DNA of 64,000 nucleotides, taken from assembly GCA_041659505.1 (NCBI GenBank), contig JBAZYF010000003.1, positions 86,026 to 150,025 on the forward strand, written 5' to 3'. A program made the translations under genes and the position numbers. This DNA is from Parcubacteria group bacterium (GTDB lineage Bacteria; Patescibacteriota; Minisyncoccia; Moranbacterales; UBA2206). This document shows positions 1 to 54,928 of this stretch, one piece after another; the first letter of the stretch is position 1; every line of letters begins with the position of its first letter. Below the pieces are notes generated by a model, which saw only the letters and a list, made by a program, of their open reading frames with translations, made no database searches and was not told the DNA's origin.

Positions 1-342
1 TTGTATCGATTATGAACAAACATCAAATCCTCAACTATCCCTTTGAGAATTTTATTGTGCTTTTCATTCCAGCCTTTCAGCGCAATGCCCTCTCTTGCCA
101 ATTCTAAAATCGTTGCCATCTGGATGTGCAAATCGTTATTCTGCATTTGAAATTCCAATTGTTTTTTACGCTTCTGATTCATAGCCCTATGATTTTTTGG
201 ATACAAAAAAGGTCCTCCGTCGGCGGCACCGTTTCGGGCACCCAACACCCTTTCGAGTATTGACCCATGTGAACAGATACCGATCAGAAGACCGTTATTG
301 TTCACATGGGGTTTCATATATTTTGCCATGCCTACACCCGAA
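1..342 (-). CDS. hypothetical protein, 3' end cut off by the window edge. N-terminus is visible; the start is ATG at 182, 317 or 342
   Basis: Minus-strand frame is open from 342 through coordinate 1. It reads MPSGVGMAKYMKPHVNNNGLLIGICSHGS...MNQKRKKQLEFQMQNNDLHIQMATILELAREGIALKGWNEKHNKILKGIVEDLMFVHNRY. Segment 183-340 is GC-richer than 1-182, so the true start may be the ATG at 182. Confidence 0.25.
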
Positions 343-482
343 GGCATAAGTTTAGGCTGTATTGTAAATTTATTCTAGCTTTTTAAGTCGTGTTGGTCAA
401 TTTTCGGAAAGTTTTAGACACTCTTTTTAAATTTAGGCATACTAAAAACTAACTCCTATAAAAATAAGTTTTTATGCGTAAC

Positions 483-2231
483 TTACGTTTCCGAATACTT
501 TTTCCCATTAAGAAATCTGATTTCCTTTGTGAAATTAGCGACTCTATGATCATCTATTTCTAGGTTTAGCATTTTTTCTCGCTCTTCGTTTTCAATTTTA
601 TCCCTATTTAAGGTAAGAATGTATTGGAAGTCTTGTGACTCTTTTTTGGCTAAATAATTTAGACTTTTTATTAATGAATCCTGATCAACATCAAAAATAT
701 TATCATGAACCAAAAAATGAGGATGTCTCACTTGGGTGTATTCGTTAAATAATAATGCTAAATCATAAATAAAAACTTTCGTTCTGTCCACACTATGGCT
801 ACCATCATCATCTATCCTCATTTCAAATGATAAGACCTTTTTACTCTTCCCGCTTGTAACTGTCTTAATATCAAAGGATGCTTCGTTGCTATCCATTATA
901 TATTCATGGATACTTAAAATTGTTATATTAAAACTATCTATTATTTTTTTAGCATCAAATATCAAAGCATCCAGCTCCTGGAAATATTTGTCTTTCTCTA
1001 GTTTTAAATCCTTTAATTCTTTTTCGGTGTTTTCATAGGCCGCATACTTACTTTGAATATTTGCATAAGACTCTCTTTTTTGGTGATAAATAGCAAAACC
1101 GTTTTTCACATCCTTCAAAACACCCTTTTGATCAATAATTTCTAATTTATTTAGTCTGCTGTCTTCAAGAGCCTGAAGTTTTCTTGCAGTAACATTTAAT
1201 TCATCGCTTATAGATTTAATTTTTTCATTAAACAATTTTCTTTGGAATTCATCAATTTTTTGTTTAAAATTCACGACTTCTTCAATGGATTTGGAGACAA
1301 TATCACCAAGGCCTGATTTGAATTGGTTATAAATAATTTCAATATCTTTTTCTTTAATAGCCTCCAGTGCTGGGAAGGTTCTCATTTTTCTCAATTGATA
1401 TCTCAGGGCAGTCTGATGAGAGCGTAAATCATCTATCTCTATTTGCATTTTAGCCAAATCATCCTGCTGTAGCGCATATGCGTCATTGGTCTTGAAACTT
1501 TCAAGCGCTGTGTCTATTTTCTTTAAATCATCATTGAGGGAGTTGAGTGTAGCCTTGACATCGCCGACTTTTTTTGTTCCGTTTTCAGTTAAGGATTTTC
1601 TCAGTGCTGTTCTGTGGACACTAGTTTTTTCAATTTCTTTGAATTTTTTTTGTATCTTATTGATAAGCGAGACATCCAGACCAAAAATGAACGCACTTGG
1701 TTTTATGGCAGGAGGTATGGTCTTTTGTGAATTACTCTCATAACACATCATAATATCCTTAAACTCAGATCCTTCTTCTCTTAAGAACGGTCCCAGAAAT
1801 TCACGAAAACTAATATCTACACTTTCGGAAGTTTCCAAAAATAATATCCTCCCCAAATATTGGCTAGCATCATCCAAATTAGAAAAATCGGTTGTTTTAC
1901 CATCTTTTATAATTGTTGGATTTTCTGGTTTTCCTTTTGTTCTAATTATTCTAAGATTTTGAGAATTAATTTCAAGGTCTAAAATTATTTGAGTATCATC
2001 AGAAAATTTATCAAGTGGGATCTTCATAACCCGACTATTGGAACTTGCCTTTAAAAGACAAAAATTCACAAATTCTATACTTAAAGATTTGCCCACTCCA
2101 TTAGTTTTTTTCCCTTTTCTCACATTGTCTGTTTCAACTTTTTCACCCATGATAAGATTTATCCCATCTTGAAATTCGATGGGTTCAAATATTTCTGGTG
2201 AAGAATGAAGTTTCAATAATTTTATTCTCAT
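483..2231 (-). CDS. ABC/SMC-type ATPase with a long coiled-coil insertion (DUF2326/ABC-3C-like or Lamassu LmuB-like)
   Basis: N-terminal P-loop (GEKVETDNVRKGKKTNGVGKS). Central ~250 aa are heptad-rich coiled coil. C-terminal FLVHDNIFDVDQD is Walker B/D-loop-like. 4-nt ATGA overlap with the upstream small gene. Confidence 0.55.
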   Translation of the reverse strand: MRIKLLKLHSSPEIFEPIEFQDGINLIMGEKVETDNVRKGKKTNGVGKSLSIEFVNFCLLKASSNSRVMKIPLDKFSDDTQIILDLEINSQNLRIIRTKGKPENPTIIKDGKTTDFSNLDDASQYLGRILFLETSESVDISFREFLGPFLREEGSEFKDIMMCYESNSQKTIPPAIKPSAFIFGLDVSLINKIQKKFKEIEKTSVHRTALRKSLTENGTKKVGDVKATLNSLNDDLKKIDTALESFKTNDAYALQQDDLAKMQIEIDDLRSHQTALRYQLRKMRTFPALEAIKEKDIEIIYNQFKSGLGDIVSKSIEEVVNFKQKIDEFQRKLFNEKIKSISDELNVTARKLQALEDSRLNKLEIIDQKGVLKDVKNGFAIYHQKRESYANIQSKYAAYENTEKELKDLKLEKDKYFQELDALIFDAKKIIDSFNITILSIHEYIMDSNEASFDIKTVTSGKSKKVLSFEMRIDDDGSHSVDRTKVFIYDLALLFNEYTQVRHPHFLVHDNIFDVDQDSLIKSLNYLAKKESQDFQYILTLNRDKIENEEREKMLNLEIDDHRVANFTKEIRFLNGKKYSET

Positions 2232-2503
2232 ACTTTATAAATATAAGGATCTGTAAAATTTATAATACCCGCGGTATATAAAAATATTAACGATAGCATT
2301 ATTTGCCGATAATGAATTATTTTTAATTCCTTTTTTAATTTTTCAGTTACTTCAAAAATACTTACCTTATCATCATCCTTGCTCTTTAAAATTTTTAAAA
2401 TTAAATACCCAATATAAATTGGCGTTGTTTTAATTTCTTCATCTTTTGTAATCAAATTATTCTTCTTCATTTGGAAAAATACTACATTTGGGAATCTCTC
2501 CAA
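2228..2503 (-). CDS. small alpha-helical 'middle component' protein (91 aa) of a three-gene ATPase cassette
   Basis: Short ORF translationally coupled to the ATPase (ATGA overlap) and overlapping the upstream gene. Position and size fit the MC/LmuC-type adaptor. No recognizable catalytic motif. Confidence 0.4.
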   Translation of the reverse strand: MERFPNVVFFQMKKNNLITKDEEIKTTPIYIGYLILKILKSKDDDKVSIFEVTEKLKKELKIIHYRQIMLSLIFLYTAGIINFTDPYIYKV

Positions 2504-3386
2504 TTAAATAATATCTTATTGCACTATGCGCATATTTCTTGCCACTACTTTCAAGCTTATTCTCAAGATAATCTGCCATCTTATCTAACGCGGTCATAGG
2601 GTCACCATTATTCTCTCTTAAAAACCTACGACTAGTTTCCTTCAAAAACGCCACCTTTTTTGCTACCATTATCTTATCTGGACCAATTGCCTGTTCTGCT
2701 TCTTTTTGTGCACTTGCATACATTGCGCTATTTACTATTTCACTTTTAATTTGTACACAATAGCTACTAAAACGTTCGAGTTTTTTATCAGGATCAGGCA
2801 TGGTATTTTCAAACCCTTCATTGATAAAGTCCGCATTATCAGATACATAACAGATAAGATCCATTACGGTTTCAACTTCTGTCGCGTTGGAATTAATATT
2901 GGGAAGATTAAAGATTCTTTGCCGATCATTTTTGCTTAATTCAATAGCCTTTCTAACTATTTGTTCCAATCCCCAATGTTCCTTTTTTATTCCATCTCCA
3001 TTTCCATTTAATTCAATAATTTTTTGATGGGGCTTGCCCATTAAATTATCCCTTGTCACAAATACCCACTTATCAAACTGGTATTTATCTTTCCATTTTT
3101 CCAAAAATTTATCATAATCACCAAGCTCCTCTGATTTTTTAGGAATAGGATTTGAAATCTTCTTTGAAGTTATGCTATTATCGTATTTCTCTGATTCTGG
3201 ACCATACACGGCAAAAAAACATTTCTCATCTATACTGTACCCATCATTACCAAGATCATGTTGCATTTTAGGGGTTTGCAAATCCGGATAACAACAAATT
3301 AGGATATCCCACAAAATTTGCTGAAATTCCTTTCCTGTTTTTCTTGTCAATCGATCTCTTATTATTTCCTCAGAAGAATTAGCCAT
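2457..3386 (-). CDS. putative effector of the three-gene cassette with a PD-(D/E)xK-like motif
   Basis: First gene of the co-directional triad. Motif GNDGYSIDEKCFFAVYG resembles a restriction-endonuclease-fold D...(D/E)xK core. No other recognized family. Confidence 0.4.
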   Translation of the reverse strand: MANSSEEIIRDRLTRKTGKEFQQILWDILICCYPDLQTPKMQHDLGNDGYSIDEKCFFAVYGPESEKYDNSITSKKISNPIPKKSEELGDYDKFLEKWKDKYQFDKWVFVTRDNLMGKPHQKIIELNGNGDGIKKEHWGLEQIVRKAIELSKNDRQRIFNLPNINSNATEVETVMDLICYVSDNADFINEGFENTMPDPDKKLERFSSYCVQIKSEIVNSAMYASAQKEAEQAIGPDKIMVAKKVAFLKETSRRFLRENNGDPMTALDKMADYLENKLESSGKKYAHSAIRYYLIGEIPKCSIFPNEEE

Positions 3387-3494
3387 TTTTTATTTCGATA
3401 CTCAAGATTATATTTCATCTCAACTTTCTTGTTAAAATAATTATACCACATACTATCAGATTTGGTATCATTCATTCATTTTTAGCAAAATATC

Positions 3495-4001
3495 CTAACT
3501 AGAGAGATTCTTATTCTCCAAGATATTCCTAATATTTTGTGATAATTCTGAGAAGTTTCCGCCAACACTAATATGTTCTACTGGCAGACCAATTGCTTTG
3601 TATAATTCATCAATAAAATTATCCCGCTTTTTACGTTGTGCGCTATTATGCGATTTTCCATCTAGCTCAATAGCAAGCAATGGTTTTGTTGTGGCATAAT
3701 TACACACAAGGAAATCAACATGGCGTGACTTGATTTTGCCACGAAGACCCCAGTGACTATTGCCAGATATATTCTTCTTGTTCACATCAATAAAGTCCTC
3801 AATGCGAACCTTAGACAATACGATATAAACTTCTCCAAGTGCTTTTTGCAGATTAACGAATAATGCTTGCTCTGATTCATTCATTACCCTGTCCTTCTTT
3901 TGATATGAAGACAAACTCGTTAGTCTTTCCTTTTTCTCAATAAATGCCTTAGCGAGAGCAACAGCAACGATGAAAATGATTAATATAATTGTCCAAAGCA
4001 T
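3495..4001 (-). CDS. membrane-anchored DUF2726-like (PD-(D/E)xK, NERD-related) nuclease-domain protein
   Basis: N-terminal TM helix (LWTIILIIFIVAVALA). Core HVDFLVCN...LLAIELDGKSH matches the DUF2726 pattern (D...E.DGxxH). Confidence 0.5.
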   Translation of the reverse strand: MLWTIILIIFIVAVALAKAFIEKKERLTSLSSYQKKDRVMNESEQALFVNLQKALGEVYIVLSKVRIEDFIDVNKKNISGNSHWGLRGKIKSRHVDFLVCNYATTKPLLAIELDGKSHNSAQRKKRDNFIDELYKAIGLPVEHISVGGNFSELSQNIRNILENKNLSS

Positions 4002-4083
4002 AGTTTTGTTTTTATTGAATTATGTTTGATGAAATTAGAAAACAAATTAGACTTATCGTTTATTTTGCAATAATTGAAAAAAA

Positions 4084-5373
4084 TTACTTCAAATCAATCC
4101 TGTTGTTCTTTTTTAAATATTTTTCAATCATTTCATTTTCGAGTCTTTTTGCCAACCGCTCACCATAGCACCACCCTAATTGCTGACAAAAATCTTTAAT
4201 CAATTCTATTCTTTTCTCTTTTAAATCTTGCACCATGATATTCCTATTCCAGTCCAATTCATAATCTAATGATTTTTTTATTTTTTCGGATGTGAAATTT
4301 TCATCTCCCTTATACAGAAAATTATTATCCGTTTCTGAGAGTACAAACGAGAGTTCTATGTAACCCCAATAACCCAAATCTTCATAAAATTTATATGCAA
4401 ATTCAATGAGCAAATCTATTCTGGCTATTAAATGATAGAAGCCATAATACCCAAGTTTGTCTTCCCTTATATTATCAAAATTCATTTCACCCTCCCTTTC
4501 AAAACTTTGTTTTAACAATTCTATATCCTGCATGAATATTTCTCCATAGTATAAAAGTCCGAAATCATTGATTTCTGTATAATTTTTTTCGTTATATTTA
4601 ATAACAACACCATCATTTATAACCCTTCTTTTATCTATGAATCTAGGAAATCCACCTGAACTAAAATAATCATTAATTTGAAGCTCGCCGAGAAAATCAA
4701 ACAAATGATCTGGATTCGTTAGCACTTGATTTGGATAAATTGGGATCGATGAGAAATATCCACTTCCAAAAGGCTTTCTACTCCTAAAGGTTGCTATCAG
4801 TGTATTTTCCTCATTGGGAACATAAATTTTATCATTGTGTCTTTGCGTGGCCGAGGTTAATAAATTTTTTTTCAAATTATCTGATTTATCTCTCCTATTT
4901 CTCAACCACTCCAATTGCTCCATCGTGGCTAAACTTTCAGGGGTTTTAGTGTCATTAATTCTCACATATGCTCTAGTATTTCCCCTGATAGCATGGGGCG
5001 TTTCATTACTCGGATGAATTCTTATTACAACCAGCGCCTTCGTGCAATCATCGTTCTTGCAAACTTTTACTTCTGGAAATATTATTGGGTAAATATTATC
5101 AATGATTATTCTTGTTACTTTTTCAGAAATGCCCTCTTTATTTTCAAGGCCTTCAACTGGGAGCAATGGAACACCGTCATCATCTTTTACACCAACAATA
5201 ACTAAGCCACCAAAAGTATTTGCGAAAGCGCTCAGTGTCATTGCGAGTTTTTTATTGTCAGCATTAAAGTCTTCCTTGTAATCCAAATTAACATTTTCCC
5301 TGATTTTCTCATTACAAAAAGCAACAACATCCTCATAGGAAATATCTTCAATTTTTTTATTATATAAAATCAT
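4084..5373 (-). CDS. Schlafen/AlbA_2 (divergent AAA, PF04326-like) domain protein
   Basis: N-terminus EDISYEDVVAFCNEKIRENVNLDYKEDF...LSAFANTFGGLVIVGVKDDDG is the canonical AlbA_2 signature (LEfK...AFAN..GG.l.iGv.D.G). Confidence 0.6.
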   Translation of the reverse strand: MILYNKKIEDISYEDVVAFCNEKIRENVNLDYKEDFNADNKKLAMTLSAFANTFGGLVIVGVKDDDGVPLLPVEGLENKEGISEKVTRIIIDNIYPIIFPEVKVCKNDDCTKALVVIRIHPSNETPHAIRGNTRAYVRINDTKTPESLATMEQLEWLRNRRDKSDNLKKNLLTSATQRHNDKIYVPNEENTLIATFRSRKPFGSGYFSSIPIYPNQVLTNPDHLFDFLGELQINDYFSSGGFPRFIDKRRVINDGVVIKYNEKNYTEINDFGLLYYGEIFMQDIELLKQSFEREGEMNFDNIREDKLGYYGFYHLIARIDLLIEFAYKFYEDLGYWGYIELSFVLSETDNNFLYKGDENFTSEKIKKSLDYELDWNRNIMVQDLKEKRIELIKDFCQQLGWCYGERLAKRLENEMIEKYLKKNNRIDLK

Positions 5374-5519
5374 AGCTTTAATTAATTTTTATCTTTAGCA
5401 TAATTCTCAATAGCAAGCTCAGCCAATCCATAAAGATTATCCCTGATTTCCAAAACTTCTTCATCAGCGATATTTTCGTCGTTTAATATTTTCTTGACTT
5501 CTTCAATACTTAACATTCC

Positions 5520-7013
5520 TTATACTGATTTTAATACTTTCCAAATTTCAACCATAGCCAAGGTATCAAGATGGCAATAGTCCTTGAGTGCCTGCACTTT
5601 CATATTTTTTTCATCCTCAGAATATTCATCCGACACAATACGATTCCATGTATCTGACGCGGCACCACCCTCTTGAATATGCATATCCTTATATGAAAGA
5701 TGAGGAACAAGTGCCGGCAAAACATACTTTATTGAAGCGCTTCCTTTAAACTCTGGATGATCATACATTGTTGTATTTCCGTAAAATGGAATCATCAAGT
5801 CTACAACGCGATTATTAACACTTTGCATAAAATCCCGATATTCAGGCAGACGCTTTCCAATTTCTTCATTTCTCTTTTTTTCAAAACTCTGATTCCAAAC
5901 AACAACACTTCCTGTTTTCGGGATATGCTTTTCCAATGCTTTTGCGAAACTTTCATCAGGACAACCTTGATCAGTATAAATAAAATCATAATGTTCCAAT
6001 TCGCTCTCGCGTGAGTCAATCACATGCAGTGAAAATTGAAAAGTTATTTGCTGATATGGACTGTACCCACTATATCTCGGCAAGGCTGATGGATATGTTT
6101 CATAGTCAAGAAATGACAATGGGTATTTCATCGTTCCTAAAAATTCAGCAATGCTTTTTTTATCAATATATTCTTTGCCGGATTTGGCCGTTTCCACTTG
6201 CCTTTTCTGATTATCTGAAAGTGGGAAATCATCCGGCACATCGTGAATATTGAAAATATGACTATCAACCAACTCTGCTAATTTTTTTCCATTGATTCTT
6301 AAAATTGCGTGAACTGGATATTCCGGAAGATCAGAATTTGAATACCAAGCTGTTGTACAATGCGAGTTTTTCCCTTTCAAAATACAATCGCAATGCCCTT
6401 TCGGTTCAGCTTCACTAGATAACAATTCATAGGCACCCTCCATTTTTTGCTTTATGTCATCCAGCTTCTCATTCACTTGGCTAGTCGAATCTTCTATAAA
6501 AAATAACTTTTCCAAGTTAATTTCGCCAAGGCGGACATATTTTTTATTAAGCCTGATCAAATTGAAAGTTCCCATCTCAATGCCCAAATCATTCAGGACA
6601 TTCTTTTGAAAAGCCATATCTATCAAATAATCCTCGGTTTTTCTTCCTCCGTTTTCTTCCGAAGCTGTCGATGACTTCACTTCATATAGATCATAGACAT
6701 TTGTATCCAGATTGAAAACAAAAATATCAGAGACTGCGAGATATTTTTCGGTTGCAAAAACAGGCTGATAAATTACAGGTGTCTTTTCTTCCATAAGCTT
6801 CCTTGTAAGCTCTGTATCATCACGAGATTCCACTAGCACGCCGCCCGAGAAAAGGCCGCGCGCAAGCTCGTCAATTTGATTGCCAGTATCAATAATATTC
6901 AGCTCAAAAGAAGAAAGTGCTTTTTTCTTATATACCTCTGGATTGTGAATTTTTAGCCAAGCATTTTTTGCACAATCGAGACATATCAGAAAGTTTGTTT
7001 TTGATAATTTCAT
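5520..7013 (-). CDS. DUF2779-like protein (RecB/Cas4-like nuclease N-terminus)
   Basis: N-terminus LSKTNFLICLDCAKNAWLKIHNPEV resembles the DUF2779 start (LSKS.F..G.QC.K.LWL..H.PE). Later CDC...C cysteine cluster. Confidence 0.4.
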   Translation of the reverse strand: MKLSKTNFLICLDCAKNAWLKIHNPEVYKKKALSSFELNIIDTGNQIDELARGLFSGGVLVESRDDTELTRKLMEEKTPVIYQPVFATEKYLAVSDIFVFNLDTNVYDLYEVKSSTASEENGGRKTEDYLIDMAFQKNVLNDLGIEMGTFNLIRLNKKYVRLGEINLEKLFFIEDSTSQVNEKLDDIKQKMEGAYELLSSEAEPKGHCDCILKGKNSHCTTAWYSNSDLPEYPVHAILRINGKKLAELVDSHIFNIHDVPDDFPLSDNQKRQVETAKSGKEYIDKKSIAEFLGTMKYPLSFLDYETYPSALPRYSGYSPYQQITFQFSLHVIDSRESELEHYDFIYTDQGCPDESFAKALEKHIPKTGSVVVWNQSFEKKRNEEIGKRLPEYRDFMQSVNNRVVDLMIPFYGNTTMYDHPEFKGSASIKYVLPALVPHLSYKDMHIQEGGAASDTWNRIVSDEYSEDEKNMKVQALKDYCHLDTLAMVEIWKVLKSV

Positions 7014-7106
7014 GCAATTTTTTTAATCAATCGCCAAAAAACTATTATTTAAAATCATATTTGCCATTTTGCTTTTCGGGTTTAGTCCAATTTTTTCGCA
7101 AAACTT

Positions 7107-9293
7107 TTATTTTATCATTCGATTGTAGTGTGCCTCATGTCCAGAATTTTCAAATATTTTTTTAAATGCTTCTTTGAAAATTTGAGGATCAACTTCTTTT
7201 GTGTCAGAAATATTTATTCTATCAAAATGTGATTCTCTATTTATATATCTCAAAAAATAAGAGTATTTGCCATCTGTTAGATTTTCAATTGCTTTATCAT
7301 ATTTTTCATTATCAATAAAACCAAAAAAACATTCTAAAATATTTCTCATAGAATTAGCCAATAAACTATCAGGGGCGTTATCGTCTTTTATTATTTGCCA
7401 ATACTGTTGATAGTCATTTAATATCTCATCTTTACCCATTTCAGAAATTATAGATTTTTTTTCTCGATTCTTGGTAATTCTAAAAAGTTTTTCCCTGTCG
7501 TCTTTCTTGTTTTTCTCTGTGTATTTTATTAATTCGTGAAAAAGATATAAATTATGAGTTAAAATGAATACTTGCTTATAGTCATCATTAAAAAAGTTTT
7601 TTCTTATGAGCTGTGCAACATTAAAAACATACATATGCGACAAGCTAGAAATTGGATCATCAATAACAACTATTTTTTCAGTTGCTATATCATCATTATT
7701 TTCTTTGCCTTTGCATAATTCCAAAAAATACAGAAAACTAATTACTGTTTTTTCTCCCTCGCTCAATGTTTCAAATTTAGCAATATCTTCGTTTGGTCTT
7801 TGTAGTTTGTATGACTTTTCTCCAGCTGGAACAATAGAAAATCCATCTAATCCAAAAAATATTAATTCACTATTTATAGCCTCAATTGCATCTTGAATGT
7901 TTACCATTTCCTTTTGTGCGTCTTTTATTATCGTTCCTCGCTCTTCAATATTTTTGTTTAACTCTGAAATTTTAGTTTCAATATCTGATTTTTCTTTTTC
8001 AACTTTCACTTTTTGAGTGTTATAATTTTCTATTGTTTGATCATAATCCCACCGCATAATTTCCCAGAAGTCTTTAATGATCTGATTTCTTGTTTTTTGT
8101 TTGTTTTTTAGCTTTTCATTATGAGTTTTTATTTCATTAATAATTGTATCTAAAAAATCATTCAGTGCTTTTTGTTCTAAAATACTTAATTCTAAGGCAA
8201 TGACTACATTCGGACTTTTAATTTTATTGTTAATTTTTGACCAATTATTGTTCAATTTATCAATAAAATTTTTAAACAAAAGCTTAAATTTGGTTTCTTT
8301 GACCTTTATAAAATCAATTTGTAAAAGTTCATTTTCTAACTTTTTTGCATCCTGATATTCTCTAAAATATTCTTTGTCTAAATCTTCTAATTCTGTGATT
8401 TTTTGTTGGTAAGATACGTCAAAGTAATTTTGAATTTCTTGATATAAATCTTTAGTTATAGTTTTTTGCTGACAAAAAGGACAGATTTTATTTTCCTCTC
8501 GGGGTTCATTTATAAACTCTTTCCCTTTTTTCACCCAATCAGAATTGTTTAATTTCTCAATAAGATCCGCTACTTGTGAATTTTCATTTCCAATAATTAC
8601 TTCTTTGAAAATTTCCTTTTCTTCGGTTTTCCAAAAATCAAAAGTTACTTTTTTAACCAAATTTTCGTCATAAGTTTTGGCGCTTTTTCCTTGCGTTGCT
8701 TCTGCTTCTTTTTTTAAATCTTCTTTTGATTTTTCTGGTTTATTTGCTGGTTTTTGTAATCTTAAAAGATGATCAAATAAGTCTTTTTTGCTTCCCCTTT
8801 TTCCTTCCAAGCAAAATTCCAAAATTCTATCTCCACCCGAATATTTTGTTTTTATCTCCCAAGTTTTATCTTCTGTTGTATTTTGTAAATCAGCGACATT
8901 TTCTTGTTTTTTATTTAAGTCAAATTGAAATCCGGTTTTCAATTCATCGTTTTCAATTTGATTCTTTAGTTTATTTATCTCCTGAGTAGCTGTATCTATT
9001 TTTTCTTTTGCTTCTTTGTTTTCTGACTTCAGACTAAAAATACCTCTTTGTGTGTCCTGATAAAAATTATCACCAACAAATTTTTGATTATAAACTAACA
9101 CTTTTTCATTATTTAGTTCTGCAATTGAACAGCAAGAAAAACAAGCGTTATCTTTATCTTGAAGATAATTTGAAAGAGTTGTTTTTCCTGTCCCATTCAG
9201 TCCATAAATAAGATTGATTTTTTTATCAGTCTCCAAGATAGCGGGTGTTTCCCCATAACTTGCAGTATTTTTTATAGAAATCTTAGTGATCAT
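7107..9293 (-). CDS. AAA_13-family ABC ATPase (PrrC/RloC-like) with a coiled-coil insertion and CxxC hook-like motif
   Basis: Walker A GLNGTGKTT at the N-terminus. Long coiled coil with ICPFCQQK (zinc-hook-like CxxC) in the middle. Walker B/D-loop VVIDDPISSLS. C-terminal region carries R/H-rich motifs (RYINRESHFD, SGHEAHYNRM) compatible with a PrrC/RloC-type nuclease module. Confidence 0.55.
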   Translation of the reverse strand: MITKISIKNTASYGETPAILETDKKINLIYGLNGTGKTTLSNYLQDKDNACFSCCSIAELNNEKVLVYNQKFVGDNFYQDTQRGIFSLKSENKEAKEKIDTATQEINKLKNQIENDELKTGFQFDLNKKQENVADLQNTTEDKTWEIKTKYSGGDRILEFCLEGKRGSKKDLFDHLLRLQKPANKPEKSKEDLKKEAEATQGKSAKTYDENLVKKVTFDFWKTEEKEIFKEVIIGNENSQVADLIEKLNNSDWVKKGKEFINEPREENKICPFCQQKTITKDLYQEIQNYFDVSYQQKITELEDLDKEYFREYQDAKKLENELLQIDFIKVKETKFKLLFKNFIDKLNNNWSKINNKIKSPNVVIALELSILEQKALNDFLDTIINEIKTHNEKLKNKQKTRNQIIKDFWEIMRWDYDQTIENYNTQKVKVEKEKSDIETKISELNKNIEERGTIIKDAQKEMVNIQDAIEAINSELIFFGLDGFSIVPAGEKSYKLQRPNEDIAKFETLSEGEKTVISFLYFLELCKGKENNDDIATEKIVVIDDPISSLSHMYVFNVAQLIRKNFFNDDYKQVFILTHNLYLFHELIKYTEKNKKDDREKLFRITKNREKKSIISEMGKDEILNDYQQYWQIIKDDNAPDSLLANSMRNILECFFGFIDNEKYDKAIENLTDGKYSYFLRYINRESHFDRINISDTKEVDPQIFKEAFKKIFENSGHEAHYNRMIK

Positions 9294-9331
9294 AATTTAA
9301 AATATCAAATTTACTGGATATTTTTTTGATT

Positions 9332-10426
9332 TTATTTCCCCGATTTTCTTCTATTGCATTCTTTGCATAACATTTGGCAATTCTTTGCAACAGTTTTTCC
9401 GCCCTCATGCCAAGGATTTATATGATCAGCTTCCATTTCTTCAATTTCAAAATGTTTCTTGCATTTTTTACAAATGCCTTTTTGTCGCTCATAGGCTTCC
9501 AGCTTCATTTTCTCGTTAAACGCTCGAATATTGAGATATTTTTCTTCACCAGTTAGCACATACCAGTACACGCCTTTTTTGCTGTCAACGTCTTCGTCGG
9601 CAATCAATCGCGCAACTTCACTCTCCAATTCTTCTGCATCTAATTTAGTATTCTTAAATTTACCATATAATTCTCCCCACTCGATTCCTTTCATCATCTT
9701 ACGATATTTTGGAAAAACCATTCGCACCCACTCAATCACTTTTTGAAAATACGCCCATAATTCCTCAGCAGTTGCATCATGTTGATGTTTCCCCATATAG
9801 TCTTCAATTTTATCATTACTAATCCAGCGAAGTACTGTTTCCAAATATTCTTGACGATTTAATGCTCCCCCCATATAGTCATTAGCCGAAAGGGATGCTG
9901 GAGCATTGCTCTTACTAAAATATCGCTTAGCATCAGTTACCCAAGTCCCCGAGTAGATAGCATTTAATAATTCTTGATTCGTTAACTTTTCACCCGCAGT
10001 ATTAATAACCTTAAACCATGCCAATTTCTCATCATATGTACCTTCGCAAAAATAAACCATGAGCTTATAATCCAAAATCTTCGCTTTTTCTTTTTCAGTT
10101 AGATTGTCGAAATACATTTGATATTCACGATTTGTAATGTTAAAGTTACCAGCTACAAAATTACAAATGCTAACTGTGCGCTGTTGTCCATCAAGAATTT
10201 CAAAGCTTCCATCATTATTCTTTACCCAATACATTGCATTTAGCGGAAAACCTCCAATCACTGAATTTATTACAGCAATTTGTTGTTCGGGTTTATAAAT
10301 AAATTCACGCTGATACTTCGGACGAATATCTAATTTTCCGCCATATCCAACCACACCCTCTTCATCGCTATCCTGATATCCAGCAAAAAGTTCACGCACT
10401 GGAATTTCATTTAGTTCAATTTCCAT
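9332..10426 (-). CDS. DUF262 (ParB/GmrSD N-terminal-like) domain fused to a C-terminal HNH endonuclease
   Basis: N-terminal ILDGQQRT motif typical of DUF262. C-terminal CKKCKKHF..ADHINPWHEGGKT..NCQMLCKECNRRK is an HNH zinc-finger nuclease motif. Confidence 0.65.
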   Translation of the reverse strand: MEIELNEIPVRELFAGYQDSDEEGVVGYGGKLDIRPKYQREFIYKPEQQIAVINSVIGGFPLNAMYWVKNNDGSFEILDGQQRTVSICNFVAGNFNITNREYQMYFDNLTEKEKAKILDYKLMVYFCEGTYDEKLAWFKVINTAGEKLTNQELLNAIYSGTWVTDAKRYFSKSNAPASLSANDYMGGALNRQEYLETVLRWISNDKIEDYMGKHQHDATAEELWAYFQKVIEWVRMVFPKYRKMMKGIEWGELYGKFKNTKLDAEELESEVARLIADEDVDSKKGVYWYVLTGEEKYLNIRAFNEKMKLEAYERQKGICKKCKKHFEIEEMEADHINPWHEGGKTVAKNCQMLCKECNRRKSGK

Positions 10427-10427
10427 A

Positions 10428-11486
10428 TTATTTTTTTCGTTTAATTAAAATTCGATTATATATTTTCCTACCTTCAATTAAAGTAAAACATTCGTAACCA
10501 ATCCATCTTGCAGAATTAGCAATGCCCAATATTTCAAACTGCGCTGGGCTATATTTATCAACAAAGGTAATCGGTACGCCCATTACACTCTCATAATCCA
10601 TTGGAATATCAGCAACTTTATCAACATTTATAACGTTGTAGTTATCGTATTTTGGAAATTCTCCCGGCGTATATTTCTTATATAACACTATTTTTTCATG
10701 ACGTTTTGTATTGTCGAGGTTTGTATACCACACAATTCTACCCATACTGAAAAACTTTGTACCATTTTCAATTTTTATTCTTGACTCTGTCTCAATATCA
10801 TAATCATTGGGAACCTGAAACCATTTTGTACCACCATTGTCGTAGCCGTGCCACAATTTATTTTCTTTGATGAAACCGAAAGTTTCTTTATAGGTTACTG
10901 CATTTTGGTCGCCAAGAATCAAAAACTTCTTGTTATATTCAATCAATTGCGCAACATATTCCCGAAACAATGAAAAAGGTGGATTAGTCACCACGATATC
11001 TGCTTGTTTTAAAAGTTCTATACTTTCTTCACTTCTAAAATCTCCATCGCCTTCCAACGGTGCCCATTCATTGTTTTTGTTTGCTTTGAGTTGTTCAGCA
11101 ATATCACGCAAATCAAACGCACCATCACCGTCGAGATCGCTAACTTCATTGATAATGAATTTATTGGCCGTTAATTTTGGACGACCCTTTGTTATGGGCA
11201 GTGTCTTATTATCTCCAAATAATCCAAGTTGAGTATTAGCAATTGGTGATGGTTTGTAACTTGTAGCGATAAGTTTCTTTAGACCCAAAGCATTAAAATT
11301 TGAGGCAAAATACTTAAAAAAGTTACTCTCGAAAGGATCGTCACAATTGCAATATACCACCTTGTCACGAAATTGTTCTTTATAGTGTTTTAATTCCTTT
11401 TCAATATCAACAAGCTGAGTATAAAACTCATCTTTTTTTGCCTTGTTGGCTTTATGCAAATTACTGTTTAATGACTTATTTTCCAT
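10428..11486 (-). CDS. N6-adenine DNA methyltransferase, gamma-class (N6_Mtase-like)
   Basis: Motif X-like DEFYTQ followed by catalytic motif IV VVTNPPF. 1-nt gap to the downstream gene. Whether it is an orphan or R-M-linked MTase is unresolved. Confidence 0.65.
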   Translation of the reverse strand: MENKSLNSNLHKANKAKKDEFYTQLVDIEKELKHYKEQFRDKVVYCNCDDPFESNFFKYFASNFNALGLKKLIATSYKPSPIANTQLGLFGDNKTLPITKGRPKLTANKFIINEVSDLDGDGAFDLRDIAEQLKANKNNEWAPLEGDGDFRSEESIELLKQADIVVTNPPFSLFREYVAQLIEYNKKFLILGDQNAVTYKETFGFIKENKLWHGYDNGGTKWFQVPNDYDIETESRIKIENGTKFFSMGRIVWYTNLDNTKRHEKIVLYKKYTPGEFPKYDNYNVINVDKVADIPMDYESVMGVPITFVDKYSPAQFEILGIANSARWIGYECFTLIEGRKIYNRILIKRKK

Positions 11487-11490
11487 GAAA

Positions 11491-12402
11491 TTACTTATTC
11501 AAATCATAACTTTGCTTGATTAAAATAAAAGCTGATTCAAGGTCTTTTTCATCTTTTAATTTCACCTCATAATCTCCATTGCCCCAGTGTCCCTTTTTAG
11601 GTTTTGTGAAGTCTGTAGATATTTCAAACAAATCAACCAATTCACCACTTTTTACATTAAGTGTGATTCGTATTTCATCCTTATGAATAATCAGGTCGGC
11701 AAAGTTGGTTGCTGTTTTGTAGGCTATATAAAATTTCTTTGGCTCCTCTTTTATTTCCTCGTCGATGGAAATAATTTTTTCGCGCAATTTGTAAAAAAGA
11801 TCTTTTGTTTTTTGATCGGTTTTTTTCAGGTGGTCATCAATCGAATAATTTTTTTGTAGAACCTCGTGCTTTTCTTTTTGATTTTTAGACTTTTTGATAA
11901 TTCCAGAAGTAGAAATTTTTATTTTCTGATAGTTTTCCGGCTCAAGAAAAAGAAGATCGTTTTCATAGATCCTGTATCTCAAAAGTTCGATGTTAATTGG
12001 TAAAATATCTGCCGTGTCTATATCAAATTTGTTATAATTTTCCGCGACACAAATTACCCGCGGAGAATCCCAATCAATATCAATTTTGATATTTTTGTTT
12101 TTGCATAAAAATTCAAAATCAGCTTTGTGATCCAATAGCCAGCGCAAATATGAAAGACCTTGATTGATAACGCTATCGTTTTGATTTTTCTTATACTCAA
12201 TAATGCAGGGTGAGCCATTTTTATCTATACCCAAGGTATCAATCCTGCCCCCGAAACTAGTCGAATATTCATGAGCTAAAAAATCAATATTCAAAATTTC
12301 TTCCAGATTATTTTCAAATAATTTCTGCAAGTCCTTTTCTAGGCCTAAGTCTTTCGTTACTAATTTTGATACCTTTGGATTTTGAATCTTAAATAATGCC
12401 AT
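11491..12402 (-). CDS. NucS/DUF91-like PD-(D/E)xK endonuclease (candidate restriction endonuclease)
   Basis: GGRIDTLGID...GSPCIIEYKK gives a D...E.K nuclease core in a DUF91/NucS-like arrangement. Immediately upstream of the MTase with a 4-nt spacing. Confidence 0.45.
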   Translation of the reverse strand: MALFKIQNPKVSKLVTKDLGLEKDLQKLFENNLEEILNIDFLAHEYSTSFGGRIDTLGIDKNGSPCIIEYKKNQNDSVINQGLSYLRWLLDHKADFEFLCKNKNIKIDIDWDSPRVICVAENYNKFDIDTADILPINIELLRYRIYENDLLFLEPENYQKIKISTSGIIKKSKNQKEKHEVLQKNYSIDDHLKKTDQKTKDLFYKLREKIISIDEEIKEEPKKFYIAYKTATNFADLIIHKDEIRITLNVKSGELVDLFEISTDFTKPKKGHWGNGDYEVKLKDEKDLESAFILIKQSYDLNK

Positions 12403-12648: not shown

Positions 12649-14613
12649 CTACTTGTATTCCTCCAAAAATTCCAGCATTTCCTTTTGTTCGGCGAGGGCT
12701 TCTTTGGCTGATTTTTCGACAGATGCGAGCATACCCTCAAAAGCCACTTTGTTTTCCACCGAGGTGACGCCGCTCAAATGCTTTCGTGCTTTCTCGGTGT
12801 GAAAAAGTGCCTTATTGCATACTTCCTGGATTACCTCATACCAAAATATTTTTTGCAGTTCCTTGATCTCTTTCTTCAAATCCAATTCTTTGAGGCTCTT
12901 GTTCCCGCCTCGTCTTGAGTATTTTTTCAAAACCTCAATTACCGTCGGGCTTAGTTGTCCTTTTTTGAGATCATCTTCCCAATCATGCGCGTCGTCATTA
13001 AGCTGTCTGGCGATTATATAATTTTCAAAGAATGCGAGTAAGTTTTTTATTTCTGAAGACTCAATGTTTTTTGTGTGAAAATACAACACAGCTATTGATC
13101 CCAACGCGTGACCGATGGAACGATCGGCGAGTCTTTCTAATGTTCCAAAATCAGGCAATCGGTCGGGAATCGTCAATCGTGATCCGGCTACCTGCGCTCG
13201 GCAATTAGTTGTCTCCCAGGCATTAGCAGAATCAATCCTGTCCATTGTGTTTTTGAAAAATTGTAAAAATTTTTCATCCTTCGCAAAAGTTTCGCAGTAT
13301 ATTAATGTTAATTCGCGAAGGCAGATATTGGCCAAGGAAAGAAACCTCGGGTCACCTTCGCCATCGAAAAAATCATCATAAATCGTATAGGCTATCCAGC
13401 CATAGAGACTGGCCACTTCCAGTTCAATGAGAATATTCTCATCCACAGCCTTATTGCTCCCCAGCGATTTTTGAAAATAATAGGGCAAGAGGGTTACTCG
13501 ATTTGCGTTGTCTCCTTTCAATATCCTTTTCCTGACAGCCAGAAAATTCTCAGTCAGTTCAGAATTGAAATTAGAAAATCTTTGATCTGTTAGCTTGATT
13601 ATCCTTTTATGTATCCTTTCCTGCTCCCTGTCTATTTTTATTTCTTTTTTATTCTTGACCGACTCATCTTCAGTCAAAAATTTTCCCACAGTTTCCAGAC
13701 AGAATGCCGTTGTAAGTTCCGCGCTACCGGAATAATGTTTTTGTTTCTTTTCTATTTTTTCAACCACGAAGGGATAGGCTTTCCACTCTCCATTTATTTT
13801 GTTTTTCAAGATAGATCCCAGACTTTCCTCCAGTTTTTCCTTATTGTGCCCTAGGTTAATAAGCGCGCTGACTGCCAGTGCGGTTTCCAAGGGATTACCC
13901 CAAGAATGATTCTTGTGCCTATTTTCCAAGAGATAGGAAATTATTTTGTCTTTCTTTTTTCCTTTGTACCAGCGAGAGATAAAATAAATGATGGCGTATG
14001 GGGATTGATAATAGGGAGAGCTGTATCTTCCAGAATCAATCGCTTCTTCCGCGAGAGCAGTCAGACTTTCCAGGGTCACGTCCTGAAGCGAAAGAAAAAA
14101 CGCAATGTTGCTGTTGACCGCCAAATCAATGTCTTTCCAGTCTTTGCCTGCATTCTGTGGAGTGAGCCACGTATAATACGGCCCGCCTTCTTTGCTCTCG
14201 CAAAATGTGAGAAGATTGATGACTTTAGCGATGGCTCTTATGGAGATAATTTTTTGATTATGCTTGGTCAGTGCGACCATAGCGCAACAAGTATCATCCA
14301 AATCGTCCGGGTACGGCGTATCTTTGCTTTCCGGCGAATTTCTTTTCCAATAATTCCACGACCAAAAATCGCTTTTTTGGCTCATCAGAAATTTTGCAGT
14401 TTTGCTTCTTACATTATCAAGCGCCTTTGAACTGGGAAGATTATTGAGACTCGCTAAAATTAAGCACGTGGGAAATGCGGATTGGTTTTCCCTGGATGCA
14501 TTGAAATCTTTTGAAGTTGAAACAAGATTGGAAAAACTTCCGTCTTTTTTTTGCCTTTGATCTAAATAATCAATACTCGCCTTTATCGTTTTGTCTATAT
14601 AGCTATGGTTCAT
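12649..14613 (-). CDS. terpene-synthase-like protein: N-terminal SHC-like class II (alpha/alpha toroid, DxDDT) region plus C-terminal class I (DDxxD) domain
   Basis: The ORF track extends to 14841 through an R-rich junk N-terminus overlapping the histidine kinase gene. A start at ATG 14613 (MNHSYIDKT...) is more plausible. Motifs: PYPDDLDDTCCAMVAL (compare SHC PYYPDVDDTAVV); QW-like repeats (DGSFSN, EGGPYYTW, NHSWGNPLETALAVSAL); C-terminal IYDDFFDGEGD and NDDAHDWED. Confidence 0.5.
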   Translation of the reverse strand: MNHSYIDKTIKASIDYLDQRQKKDGSFSNLVSTSKDFNASRENQSAFPTCLILASLNNLPSSKALDNVRSKTAKFLMSQKSDFWSWNYWKRNSPESKDTPYPDDLDDTCCAMVALTKHNQKIISIRAIAKVINLLTFCESKEGGPYYTWLTPQNAGKDWKDIDLAVNSNIAFFLSLQDVTLESLTALAEEAIDSGRYSSPYYQSPYAIIYFISRWYKGKKKDKIISYLLENRHKNHSWGNPLETALAVSALINLGHNKEKLEESLGSILKNKINGEWKAYPFVVEKIEKKQKHYSGSAELTTAFCLETVGKFLTEDESVKNKKEIKIDREQERIHKRIIKLTDQRFSNFNSELTENFLAVRKRILKGDNANRVTLLPYYFQKSLGSNKAVDENILIELEVASLYGWIAYTIYDDFFDGEGDPRFLSLANICLRELTLIYCETFAKDEKFLQFFKNTMDRIDSANAWETTNCRAQVAGSRLTIPDRLPDFGTLERLADRSIGHALGSIAVLYFHTKNIESSEIKNLLAFFENYIIARQLNDDAHDWEDDLKKGQLSPTVIEVLKKYSRRGGNKSLKELDLKKEIKELQKIFWYEVIQEVCNKALFHTEKARKHLSGVTSVENKVAFEGMLASVEKSAKEALAEQKEMLEFLEEYK

Positions 14614-16081
14614 TTCTAATTGGAAATTCAATAATAAATTTGCTTCCTTGCCCCCAGATGCTTTCAACCTTGATTGTTCCGCCAAAATCTTCCTCGACCG
14701 TGTTTTTTGCGGTTGCCAGTCCAATCCCCGCTCCCTTTTGCGGACCCTTGGTGGTAAAAAACGGATCAAATATCTTATTGCGGATTTCTTCCGAAATCCC
14801 GCCTGCCCGATCTTCAATGGAAATAACCGCCTTTTCGCCACGCTTTTCCAACCCTATCTTTATTTCTTTCCCCTCTTCATTGCTCATTTCATATGCGTCC
14901 AAGGCGTTGAGTATGATATTGGTTACCACATGATTGAATCTGACCGCGTTTCCGTAAGTAAGGATATCAAAATCGCCGCATAGCTTGATATCGACTTTTT
15001 CCGTTTTCAGTTTGTATCCCAGTATTTTGGCGACACCGAGTATCTCTTTCTTGGCCGAAAACAACGCTTCTATTTTTTGGTTTTGAAATTGCTTCTTGGC
15101 ATCTTCGATATATTCCGATATAGCCGCTTTATTATCATTGGCCTGCTTCAAATATTCTCTAATCTCAACCAATTCCTTTTCTCCCCCCTCGGTCGCCTGC
15201 TCTATGTTCAGAAAAAGAAAATTGATATGATTTATAAGGTCGTGGAAAAGTCCGGAGGAAATTTTGCCGAACTCGATAAACCTGGAAGCCTGATTGATTT
15301 TCTCCATTTGCGCCTTCTCTAACTCTCTTGTCCTTTCCTGAACTCTCATTTCCAGCATATCCCGTTCTTCTTTGAGTTCCGCTTCGGATTTTCTCGCTCG
15401 TTTTAATGACCTTTCAATTTCACGATTAGAAAGCCAGGAAACGATGGCGATGACCATGAAGGTTACAGAAAATTGTATGGCATCTTTGATGTCTAATGTT
15501 TCAGGCTTCCAATACACATTAGGTTGTGTCACACCGCTAAGTTGAAAATATGTCACCGCTAAAATAGCGAGGGCTGTCGCGAAAGCAATTCCAAATGCGA
15601 AGCGCGAACCAACCAAAACACCTGACGCCACAATAATAAACGCGTAACCGAGGAGCGCCTCTGGAACATCGGCGCCCCAATGAAAAGCGGTGTAGGTGGT
15701 CAAAATGAAAAAGATTGCTATGAAAACATAGGAGACAAAAACGAAAAGTTCCGCTCGGGAAAGTAAATATAAAACAACAAAGCTAAAAAATACAATCAAT
15801 ATATTGCTCAACGGAAAACCTCGATATTCCAAGCCGACCTTATTTGCTTGATATGCAATAATGAGCGAAAAGGTTGCCGACAAAACAATGGCGGACAATA
15901 GTAAAACATTCAGTATGAATTCGTGGCGCCTGGAGTCTTCGCTTTTTGACTTCGGTTTTATTACTTTTTCAAATAACAAAAAGACACTTTTTTGAAAAAC
16001 GCCAGAGTTGGAAATATCCTTTTCTTGTAGATCGTTTTTCATATAGTGTCTTTTTATAAAAAGCCTACGCCATCGGAGCAT
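14603..16081 (-). CDS. sensor histidine kinase (multi-TM sensor, HisKA H-box, HATPase_c)
   Basis: Six to seven predicted TM helices. H-box FHDLINHINFL. G-boxes (GAGIGLATAK, GGTIKVESIWGQGSKF). Confidence 0.75.
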   Translation of the reverse strand: MLRWRRLFIKRHYMKNDLQEKDISNSGVFQKSVFLLFEKVIKPKSKSEDSRRHEFILNVLLLSAIVLSATFSLIIAYQANKVGLEYRGFPLSNILIVFFSFVVLYLLSRAELFVFVSYVFIAIFFILTTYTAFHWGADVPEALLGYAFIIVASGVLVGSRFAFGIAFATALAILAVTYFQLSGVTQPNVYWKPETLDIKDAIQFSVTFMVIAIVSWLSNREIERSLKRARKSEAELKEERDMLEMRVQERTRELEKAQMEKINQASRFIEFGKISSGLFHDLINHINFLFLNIEQATEGGEKELVEIREYLKQANDNKAAISEYIEDAKKQFQNQKIEALFSAKKEILGVAKILGYKLKTEKVDIKLCGDFDILTYGNAVRFNHVVTNIILNALDAYEMSNEEGKEIKIGLEKRGEKAVISIEDRAGGISEEIRNKIFDPFFTTKGPQKGAGIGLATAKNTVEEDFGGTIKVESIWGQGSKFIIEFPIRNEP

Positions 16082-16296
16082 TGCTCCATGGACTGGCGAC
16101 GCTCACCATCGACATGACAAATGCACTCAATGCGACAGCCTTTCTGGCCTTCTTGCTCGTTAGAATTTTTTTGATGATTTTCTTTTTCATTTCTTCGTTA
16201 TTTTAATTTTTTGATAAAAATAATCCCTCGACCAAGAATTACAAATTTAATTGTATCAAAGCGAGGTAAAGAAAAAGTAAAGAAAATATCAAGAAA

Positions 16297-16968
16297 TCAA
16301 TCCAGTTCCATTTTGTAGCCTCTTCCGTTCACAGTTTGAATCAGGCTCACCTTTCTCCCAATGTCGATCTTGGCACGCAAGTTTCTGATATGTGATTTCA
16401 AAGTATTGGAAAAAGTATCTAAATCCATGTCCCACACGTGCTCCATGATATCTCCCTGCGACAGCGTTCGACCCGTATTTTTGGCTAGATATTCCAAGAG
16501 CATAAATTCTTTTCGCGTGAGATTGATGCTTTTCTTTCCTCGTTTCACCTCATGATTTTTGGTGTTCATGATCAAATCCCCGATTTTTATTGTTTCTCTG
16601 ATTGTGGCGTTCGGGCGACGCAGTAGCGCTTTCACTCTGGACAAAAGTTCCCGAAAAGAAAAAGGCTTGGTCAGATAGTCATCCGCACCATTATCCAAAA
16701 GATCCACCTTGGTGGTAATATCCGACAAGGCCGAAAGCATTATGATTTTCACGTCTTTCTTTTTTTCGCGGATCGCCTGGCACACTTCCAGTCCGCTTTT
16801 CTTGGGTAGCACGTTATCAAGCACGATTAAGTCATAATCATTGCAACGGCCGAGGAATGCTCCCTTCTCGCCATCCGTTGCCACGTCAACAGCAAAAAGT
16901 TCCATCTCAAGATTCGACTTGAGAAAGTCGGAAATTTTAGGGTCGTCGTCTATGACTAAAATTCGCAT
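16297..16968 (-). CDS. OmpR-family response regulator (REC + winged-helix)
   Basis: MRILVIDDD...D receiver motifs. C-terminal trans_reg_C pattern (LTRKEFMLLEYLAKNTGRTLSQGDIMEHVW...GRGYKM). Confidence 0.8.
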   Translation of the reverse strand: MRILVIDDDPKISDFLKSNLEMELFAVDVATDGEKGAFLGRCNDYDLIVLDNVLPKKSGLEVCQAIREKKKDVKIIMLSALSDITTKVDLLDNGADDYLTKPFSFRELLSRVKALLRRPNATIRETIKIGDLIMNTKNHEVKRGKKSINLTRKEFMLLEYLAKNTGRTLSQGDIMEHVWDMDLDTFSNTLKSHIRNLRAKIDIGRKVSLIQTVNGRGYKMELD

Positions 16969-54868: not shown

Positions 54869-54928
54869 ACAAAAAATATTCTTGTCGCAGGAACGAGCTA
54901 GCAAATTAGTGTCGCCCGCCTTTTGGCA

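Follow-up and report, generated by a model that had tools for sequence, protein, structure and literature searches.

In this 64,000-nucleotide (nt) stretch of a Parcubacteria group bacterium, which we call the window throughout and from whose first letter all coordinates are counted, three minus-strand genes spanning 483-3386 probably form an ABC-three component (ABC-3C) conflict system, that is to say a candidate anti-phage system, of the class which combines middle component 6 (MC6) with a DUF2326 ATPase. Its build resembles that of a short Lamassu system, and it stands in a defence island of low guanine-plus-cytosine (GC) content. The assignment comes from the matches of the middle component and of the ATPase to specific protein families and from the company that the three genes keep in other genomes and metagenomes. 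The genes, their domains and their motifs are the following:

2457..3386, minus strand: effector gene, an open reading frame (ORF) of 309 amino acids (aa), LmuA-like third component of the ABC-3C system
2228..2470, minus strand: middle component gene (MC6), 80 aa from the ATG at 2470, Pfam PF20293
483..2231, minus strand: ABC ATPase gene with coiled-coil insert, 582 aa, DUF2326 / PDC-M68B
2892..3386, minus strand: effector N-terminal domain (N-domain), residues 1-165, predicted restriction-endonuclease-like fold with a non-canonical active-site pattern
2460..2877, minus strand: effector C-terminal domain, residues ~170-309, all-helical adaptor, probably CTD10/CTD11-related
3222..3251, minus strand: GNDGYSIDEK, effector residues 46-55, the motif singled out in an earlier reading
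2085..2114, minus strand: Walker A / P-loop GKKTNGVGKS, ATPase residues 40-49, from an alignment of 10 ATPases
684..716, minus strand: Walker B and D-loop FLVHDNIFDVD, ATPase residues 506-516, from the same alignment
3407..3435, minus strand: promoter-like site TTAACA-17-TATAAT, matched by pattern alone, ~20 nt ahead of the effector start codon

The three ORFs share one orientation and overlap, and make up an operon-like unit. An earlier reading of the same letters, made without database searches and called here the sequence-only reading, had described three translationally coupled genes here, with overlaps of 47 and 4 nt. The ORFs are indeed present, at 3386..2457, 2503..2228 and 2231..483, and the middle gene does overlap the ATPase gene by 4 nt (ATGA). 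The overlap of 47 nt, on the other hand, needs the middle ORF to start as it was listed, at a TTG at 2503, which gives 91 aa. Since the conservation among homologues of the middle protein starts at NNLITKDE, and since gene callers give products of 75-80 aa for the middle gene in related contigs, its true start is likely the ATG at 2470 (80 aa), in which case the overlap with the effector gene is 14 nt. The promoter-like site in front of the effector gene is the best match to a sigma-70-like consensus within 1-4200 (11 of 12 positions); sites of this pattern are altogether no commoner there than in shuffled sequence.

The middle protein passes the Pfam model MC6 (PF20293, ABC-three component system middle component 6) with E=4.9e-9 and 36.5 bits, for a cut-off of 27.2, and MC6 calls are also present in homologous loci. 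The ATPase matches Pfam DUF2326 (PF10088) with E=1.1e-22 and 80.7 bits, for a gathering score of 28.7, over its C-terminal head, and it matches the PADLOC model PDC-M68B with E=3e-53 over residues 5-555, which is almost its full length. These profile matches back the ABC-3C / Lamassu-like architecture proposed in the sequence-only reading. We judged the conservation of the ATPase on an alignment of 10 ATPases which are 21-74% identical to that of the window: N44, G45, G47, K48 and S49 of Walker A are invariant, as are H509 and D510 of Walker B, and the D-loop is nearly so. Position 511, which follows the Walker B aspartate, is Asn in the window and N or G in the alignment, never Glu; in a homologue carried by an Enterobacter plasmid it is S (FLIHDS). 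Between the Walker motifs, residues ~185-470 match coiled-coil proteins only in a profile search of the PDB. The invariant residues together with these matches confirm the layout claimed earlier, with the P-loop at the N-terminus, then the coiled coil, then Walker B and D-loop at the C-terminus: a coiled coil of roughly 280 aa interrupts the ABC ATPase head. The window ATPase has no CxxC hook.

The gene order is conserved elsewhere. In all 11 independent loci examined from genomes and assemblies, the effector gene is followed by the MC6 gene and then by the DUF2326 gene; a genome scan with a tighter effector alignment gave 4 loci among the GTDB representative genomes. In a survey led by the ATPase, 80 metagenome loci were fetched (36-71% ATPase identity), and the 57 with enough upstream sequence were counted. 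An ORF with the C-terminal domain of the effector lies at most 400 nt upstream of the ATPase in 54 of these 57 loci, and in 50 of those 54 a middle-component ORF abuts the ATPase. The effector is absent from the three other loci, which are one system found on three contigs, with a large surface-protein gene in its place. On these contigs, which come from human-gut and related metagenomes (L035, L040 and L042), an orphan pair of MC6 and DUF2326 genes is left, and a repetitive surface-protein gene of 1176 aa ends upstream of 3753, where the effector is expected; the pair looks like a decayed system.

The flanks of the triads vary and include a type I restriction-modification system, methyltransferases, housekeeping genes and a diversity-generating retroelement. 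Because the flanking genes differ, we concluded that the triad moves as a unit. At one locus (L012, 870-5863), it stands beside an apparent diversity-generating retroelement, with an RVT_1 reverse transcriptase, bAvd and a Laminin_G_3/FGE-sulfatase target protein, and beside a Fic gene; conjugation genes lie on the other side.

These data bear on a quite different explanation, in which the ATPase would be a housekeeping protein of the SMC, RecN or Rad50 type that maintains the chromosome or a plasmid, and the pair of genes upstream of it would be neighbours without any relation to it. The succession of P-loop, coiled coil and Walker B is common to SMC and Rad50, and a search of the PDB with a profile of 10 ATPase homologues did give matches of this kind, all of them marginal (the SMC1A head at E=0.08, Rad50 at E~0.9). 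However, the specific matches of the ATPase are those to DUF2326 and PDC-M68B, while no SMC_N, RecN, RecF or SbcC model of Pfam or NCBIfam matches it at E-values of up to 0.01. Moreover the upstream partners are conserved in 54 of the 57 loci, the flanks differ from genome to genome, and the block around the triad has a foreign GC content. The co-occurrence and the profile tests already contradict the housekeeping explanation, which we hold to be highly improbable. The assignment made in the sequence-only reading is left standing on both counts: Pfam, NCBIfam and the PDB profile search gave no SMC or RecN match to the ATPase, and the upstream genes accompany it in the 54 metagenome loci and in the 11 others.

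The effector is the component for which databases say least. It has no Pfam, PADLOC or NCBIfam match of its own, even at E-values of up to 10. Its 49 close homologues are nearly all metagenomic, and those with a name come mostly from metagenome-assembled genomes (MAGs) of the candidate phyla radiation; the best one, 93% identical, belongs to Candidatus Moranbacteria, and others to Shapirobacteria, to WWE3 and to one Mariniphaga MAG. The alignments divide the protein into two domains, of which the second is all-helical in the predicted model (residues 168-296). A search with the effector profile, which covered 1.84 billion representatives, gave 1113 matches. Among the best 150 of these 1113, both domains were matched in 48 proteins and the N-domain alone in 11, while the C-terminal domain alone was matched in 54 proteins of at least 270 aa and in 37 shorter ones. 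We sampled 20 of the proteins of at least 270 aa which match only the C-terminal domain, and all 20 carry SMEK_N at their N-terminus. Judging by these matches, the C-terminal domain is the widespread part of the effector.

The kinship of this C-terminal domain with Pfam CTD10 and CTD11 appears by way of its relatives. Effector relatives which match over both domains pass CTD10 or CTD11 and also PADLOC PDC-M68A, and a match to CTD10 or CTD11 was found in 8 of 40 relatives sampled. One of them, P0105, matches the effector profile across both domains (E=2.2e-20) and passes CTD10 at 2.5e-16. The window's own C-terminal domain matches no Pfam CTD model even at E-values of up to 10; going by the matches of its relatives, it is nevertheless probably related to CTD10/CTD11.

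The N-domain, by contrast with the rest of the triad, varies. It is SMEK in 47 of the 57 metagenome loci and of the window's type in 6, and in 1 locus the C-terminal domain stands alone. The six loci which have the window's type are exactly those with the six closest ATPases (62-71% identity). From the domain patterns of the loci and of the best 150 matches, we concluded that the C-terminal domain, MC6 and the ATPase constitute a conserved core on which the N-domain can be swapped: only the N-terminal domain of the effector is exchanged between relatives, being either SMEK or the window's domain. The window's N-domain therefore occupies the place of a nuclease, since SMEK holds the same position on the core of its relatives.

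No model of Pfam, NCBIfam or PADLOC matches the N-domain itself, and searches of the PDB by sequence and by profile with effector profiles gave chance matches only. An AlphaFold2 model of the N-domain alone is confident (predicted local distance difference test, pLDDT, 92.6; predicted template modelling score, pTM, 0.88). Comparing this model with the predicted viral structures of BFVD by Foldseek, we obtained the best match with one unnamed protein (E=8.6e-5), and behind it came several phage proteins which bear the name "Restriction endonuclease" (E=1e-3 to 7e-3, probability 1.00). In the PDB, where cleavage domains of type IIS/IIG restriction enzymes rank first, it comes nearest to those of EcoT38I, Nt.BspD6I and FokI, with template modelling (TM) scores of 0.46-0.57, and also to RPB5; for the model of the full-length effector, Foldseek gave nothing in the PDB at E<1e-3. 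With the N-domain modelled alone the PDB neighbours were better, though still short of significance, and the viral library was the only one to give significant matches. Hence, on the confident model, the matches in the viral library and the neighbours in the PDB, we accepted that the N-domain has the restriction-endonuclease core fold (alpha-beta-beta-beta-alpha-beta), and we treat the effector as a predicted nuclease-fold effector.

The residues conserved in this domain are not those to which attention had been drawn. All of 25 diverse N-domain sequences share D44, D48 and K76; in a wider alignment of 68 sequences D48 and K76 remain invariant, while D44, G49, Y61, D90, W98, F109 and G117 are near-invariant. 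The signature of the family reads G-x-x-F-Q ... G-D-x-G-N-D-G-Y ... Y-F-Q-V-Y-A-P ... K ... D-F. The sequence-only reading had taken GNDGYSIDEK for a restriction-endonuclease-like motif and had proposed its DEK as a target for mutation. The motif is present at residues 46-55, and its D48 is invariant and its G49 nearly so. However, D53, E54 and K55 vary across the family (IGEK, ISER, FSSK, LKAT and others), which means that GNDGYSIDEK is not a D-E-K catalytic triad. As DEK is not conserved, the mutant would miss the conserved core, namely D44, D48, K76 and D90. The "PD" aspartate would be expected on a strand which D48 immediately precedes; the strand due to carry (D/E)xK reads A59-V60-Y61 in the window and Q-V-Y/H in the wider family, and the invariant lysine K76 sits on the helix which follows it. 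A nuclease active site would have to use D44, D48, K76 and D90.

One of the chance matches in the PDB was to an EF-hand loop of frequenin, which is similar to DxGNDGY; we rejected it, as the model of the N-domain is alpha/beta and the ligand at EF-hand position 3 is missing. Members of the N-domain family also exist outside ABC-3C operons, joined either to a HEPN domain at the C-terminus (motif RNxLVHG, weak matches to HepT-like/Apea) or to TPR repeats: P0212, P0225, P0232 (~255-261 aa), P0200 and P0206. On the chromosome of Morganella morganii, a family member of 267 aa (L018, 6001-6804) is found at the end of a prophage, without any ABC ATPase; its neighbours are genes for tail-fibre assembly, an invertase, a UmuDC-like protein and an integrase, and an unannotated gene of 340 aa adjoins it.

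Two groups of nucleases can be compared with the N-domain. SMEK (PF21941), a nuclease domain also listed among the partners of short Argonautes (PMC10810196), takes the place of the N-domain on this core. Both have their motifs in a similar order: a helix, a loop with aspartates (IDLGD in SMEK, DLGNDG in the window), a strand (Q-V-T/S as against A/Q-V-Y) and T..K on the next helix, and the alignment of the two profiles is collinear over 114-126 columns. They differ in that no member of the window's N-domain family matches SMEK_N. The PD-(D/E)xK cleavage domains (FokI, Nt.BspD6I, EcoT38I and Mrr-like phage proteins) are the closest in structure to the N-domain model, with D48 near the expected "PD" site; they differ from it in that the would-be (D/E)xK strand of the window has neither the acidic residue nor the lysine.

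As a whole, the triad belongs to a class which annotation pipelines already know. ABC-3C systems with middle component 6 were reportedly described by Krishnan, Burroughs, Iyer and Aravind in 2020 (Nucleic Acids Res 48:10045). This class, defined here by Pfam MC6 (PF20293), DUF2326 (PF10088) and CTD10 (PF20275), has the same order of effector, MC6 and ATPase as the window, with overlapping genes; the window departs from it in that the C-terminal domain of its effector stays below the CTD10/CTD11 models, which only its relatives reach. A tblastn search of RefSeq/GenBank plasmids with P0105, which has the N-domain together with CTD10, gave 124 records, 91 of them from Klebsiella, and the genes matched are annotated "ABC-three component system protein" by the Prokaryotic Genome Annotation Pipeline (PGAP); on these records MC6 and an ATPase of the DUF2326 type come after the effector. 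The triad on an IncF plasmid of Enterobacter kobei may serve as an example: it consists of an "ABC-three component system protein" of 306 aa, a "middle component 6" of 83 aa and a second "ABC-three component system protein" of 573 aa. The N-domain of its effector matches the profile of the window's family (E=1e-25, probability 99.7%) and its ATPase aligns with that of the window end to end (550 residues, 21% identity, E=1e-13), while the two middle components cannot be aligned by BLAST. Compared with these plasmid versions, the window has Ala rather than Gln at position 59, and its kind is hosted by bacteria of the candidate phyla radiation.

PADLOC lists the same arrangement as its candidate system PDC-M68: the window's ATPase matches PDC-M68B, and the C-terminal domains of distant effector relatives match PDC-M68A, although the effector of the window itself matches no PDC-M68A model even at E-values of up to 10. 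Distant members of the N-domain family, at E-values of 1.8e-7 to 4.5e-9, match the PADLOC LmuA model PDLC03852 over model positions ~10-114; the window effector itself matches no PADLOC LmuA model. The sequence-only reading was right in finding the effector unlike the common Cap4 and HEPN effectors. Its suggestion of a new effector variant, on the other hand, has to be given up, because triads on plasmids with the same N-domain family and CTD10 are already annotated as ABC-3C and because distant members match LmuA. Judged by these similarities, the window triad is a divergent member, from the candidate phyla radiation, of a recognised class.

The likeness to short Lamassu (LmuA-LmuC-LmuB; DdmABC) lies in the build: the effector combines a variable N-domain with a C-terminal domain for oligomerisation or docking, the middle protein is small, and the ATPase is ABC/SMC-like and has ~600 aa. 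Both kinds of ATPase also lack the usual glutamate of Walker B, which in short LmuB reads hhhhD[Q/S/T/E] (bioRxiv 10.1101/2025.04.02.646746) and in the window D-N. The same paper names SMEK as a short-Lamassu effector, and we infer that its short-Lamassu SMEK clade is the DUF2326 clade. In Lamassu, LmuA is sequestered in an A1B2C1 complex; when DNA is sensed, LmuA is set free, forms tetramers and turns into an active nuclease (bioRxiv 10.1101/2025.03.14.643221 and 10.1101/2025.04.02.646746). By analogy with these structures, an ATPase dimer, together with the middle component, would hold one effector by its C-terminal domain, as an inactive monomer. The ATPase heads and the coiled coils would sense foreign DNA, for instance ends or replication intermediates. 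Once freed, the effector would oligomerise through its C-terminal domain, and this would bring together the N-terminal nuclease-fold domains, so that DNA would be cut and the infection aborted. ATP would probably be bound and slowly hydrolysed, as Asn replaces the Walker B glutamate, and the ATPase would then act as a switch and not as a motor.

Several results weigh against this interpretation, and some of them concern the ATPase. No PADLOC LmuB model matches it even at E-values of up to 10, and neither sequence nor profile searches with it found any LmuB chain in the PDB; it also differs from short LmuB in having no CxxC hook. More generally, the ATPase and the middle component gave no significant match to LmuB, LmuC or Rad50 in the PDB. 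Because the LmuB models and chains do not match the ATPase, the mechanism described above is borrowed from Lamassu and not demonstrated, and for the same reason we filed the triad under ABC-3C (MC6 class) and regard it as only probably Lamassu-like in its working. In the searchable literature there is no published validation of PDC-M68 and no experimentally tested MC6/DUF2326 member. The other results concern the N-domain. Its Foldseek matches in the PDB all have E>0.1, none being below 1e-3, and the canonical catalytic motif D...(D/E)-x-K is not found in it. The alignment with SMEK by hhalign is weak (P=0.017-0.044, probability 1-3%), so that homology is not established, and that with the FokI cleavage domain is not significant (P=0.43).

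One can therefore ask whether the window holds a true ABC-3C triad whose N-domain is a restriction-endonuclease fold dead for catalysis, that is, a DNA-binding or sensor module or some other enzyme, any toxicity coming from binding or from a recruited partner. This would account for the A-V-Y strand of the window's clade and the Q-V-[Y/H] strand of the wider family at the place of (D/E)xK. In the fusions to HEPN or TPR, the other module could be the effector, and inactive restriction-endonuclease folds do exist, such as RPB5, which is among the structural neighbours. On the other hand, sequences with as little as ~20% identity all keep D44, D48 and K76 and nearly all keep D90 and Y61, as one would expect of an active site, and the domain stands in for the nuclease domain SMEK while the core is otherwise the same. 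Furthermore, PD-(D/E)xK variants in which the lysine has moved are well known. We consider a catalytically dead N-domain unlikely, and continue to prefer a predicted nuclease-fold effector.

The triad lies within a block of 12 kb (window 1-12400) whose GC content is ~32%, as compared with 41-46% for the remainder of the window. The other minus-strand ORFs of at least 100 aa in this block are all restriction-associated, defence-associated or uncharacterised:

3495-4001, minus strand: DUF2726
4084-5373, minus strand: SLFN_AlbA_2
5520-7013, minus strand: DUF2779
7107-9293, minus strand: AAA_13/PDC-S06
9332-10426, minus strand: GmrSD_N and HNH
10428-11486, minus strand: EcoRI-type adenine methylase
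11491-12402, minus strand: DUF5655

Past the island a two-component system (14603-16968) comes first; then, a few kb from the island, the minus strand carries the large subunit of a gpA-type phage terminase and an N6/N4 DNA methylase fused to ParB_N (17639-19201 and 19740-21077), a pair which may be the remnant of a prophage or of a mobile element. The sole tRNA gene of the window, tRNA-Leu(CAA), is located at 54788-54870.

On the other side of the triad, downstream of the ATPase gene, we found a LOOT RNA. LOOT is an orphan structured RNA of candidate-phyla-radiation bacteria for which no function is known. The copies found with triads are the following:

225..358, minus strand: LOOT RNA (Rfam RF03000) of the window, 71 bits (gathering score 46.4), 124 nt downstream of the ATPase stop
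L004, 9688-9805: on the strand of the triad, 149 nt downstream of the ATPase stop
L027, 5644-5772: on the strand of the triad, 112 nt downstream of the ATPase stop
L016, 9675-9793: on the strand of the triad, 691 nt downstream of the ATPase stop

The ATPases of L004, L027 and L016 are respectively 63%, 47% and 23% identical to that of the window, and their effectors are of different types: the C-terminal domain only in L004, SMEK in L027, and in L016 the window's type of N-domain with a different C-terminal domain. We found no LOOT in ~46 other triad loci scanned, ten of which were scanned even at E-values of up to 1; several of the LOOT-free triads are near tRNA or tmRNA (transfer-messenger RNA) genes. 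The LOOT of the window has a promoter-like site at 400..372 and also a stem like that of a terminator, with a T-run behind it. By eye, that of L004 is likewise flanked by promoter-like and terminator-like sequences, and that of L027 by a promoter-like one. The text of Weinberg 2017 is silent on LOOT.

The simplest reading of these observations is that the cassettes insert beside small-RNA genes, which would be insertion hot spots. A link between LOOT and DUF2326-type ABC-3C triads, whether as an RNA partner or regulator or as a landmark for the insertion of the cassette, seems to us improbable. The narrower proposal, by which LOOT would be a functional part of the triad (for example an RNA which regulates it or acts like an antitoxin, or one mobilised together with it) and not a mere neighbour, appears a little less probable still. 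It draws on the fact that four divergent systems with different effector types have LOOT downstream, which is far above chance for a rare RNA gene. But the ~46 other triad loci do without LOOT, the RNA has promoter-like and terminator-like signals of its own, and the proteobacterial plasmid versions occur in hosts without known LOOT, while the triads found beside tRNA and tmRNA genes fit islands which insert next to small-RNA genes.

The chief value of these results is one of annotation: three hypothetical genes can now be named as an ABC-3C system of the MC6/DUF2326 class, PDC-M68 in PADLOC. They also show that reduced genomes like those of the candidate phyla radiation can carry a multi-gene defence island. 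The N-domain represents a widespread family without a Pfam model, with a predicted restriction-endonuclease fold and a rearranged conserved core (D44, D48, K76 and D90, with Y61 at the place expected of the lysine). The adjacency of LOOT to some of the triads gives a first genomic handle on this orphan RNA. Finally, the MC6/DUF2326 class offers for comparison one and the same core bearing either of two interchangeable effector domains, SMEK or that of the window.

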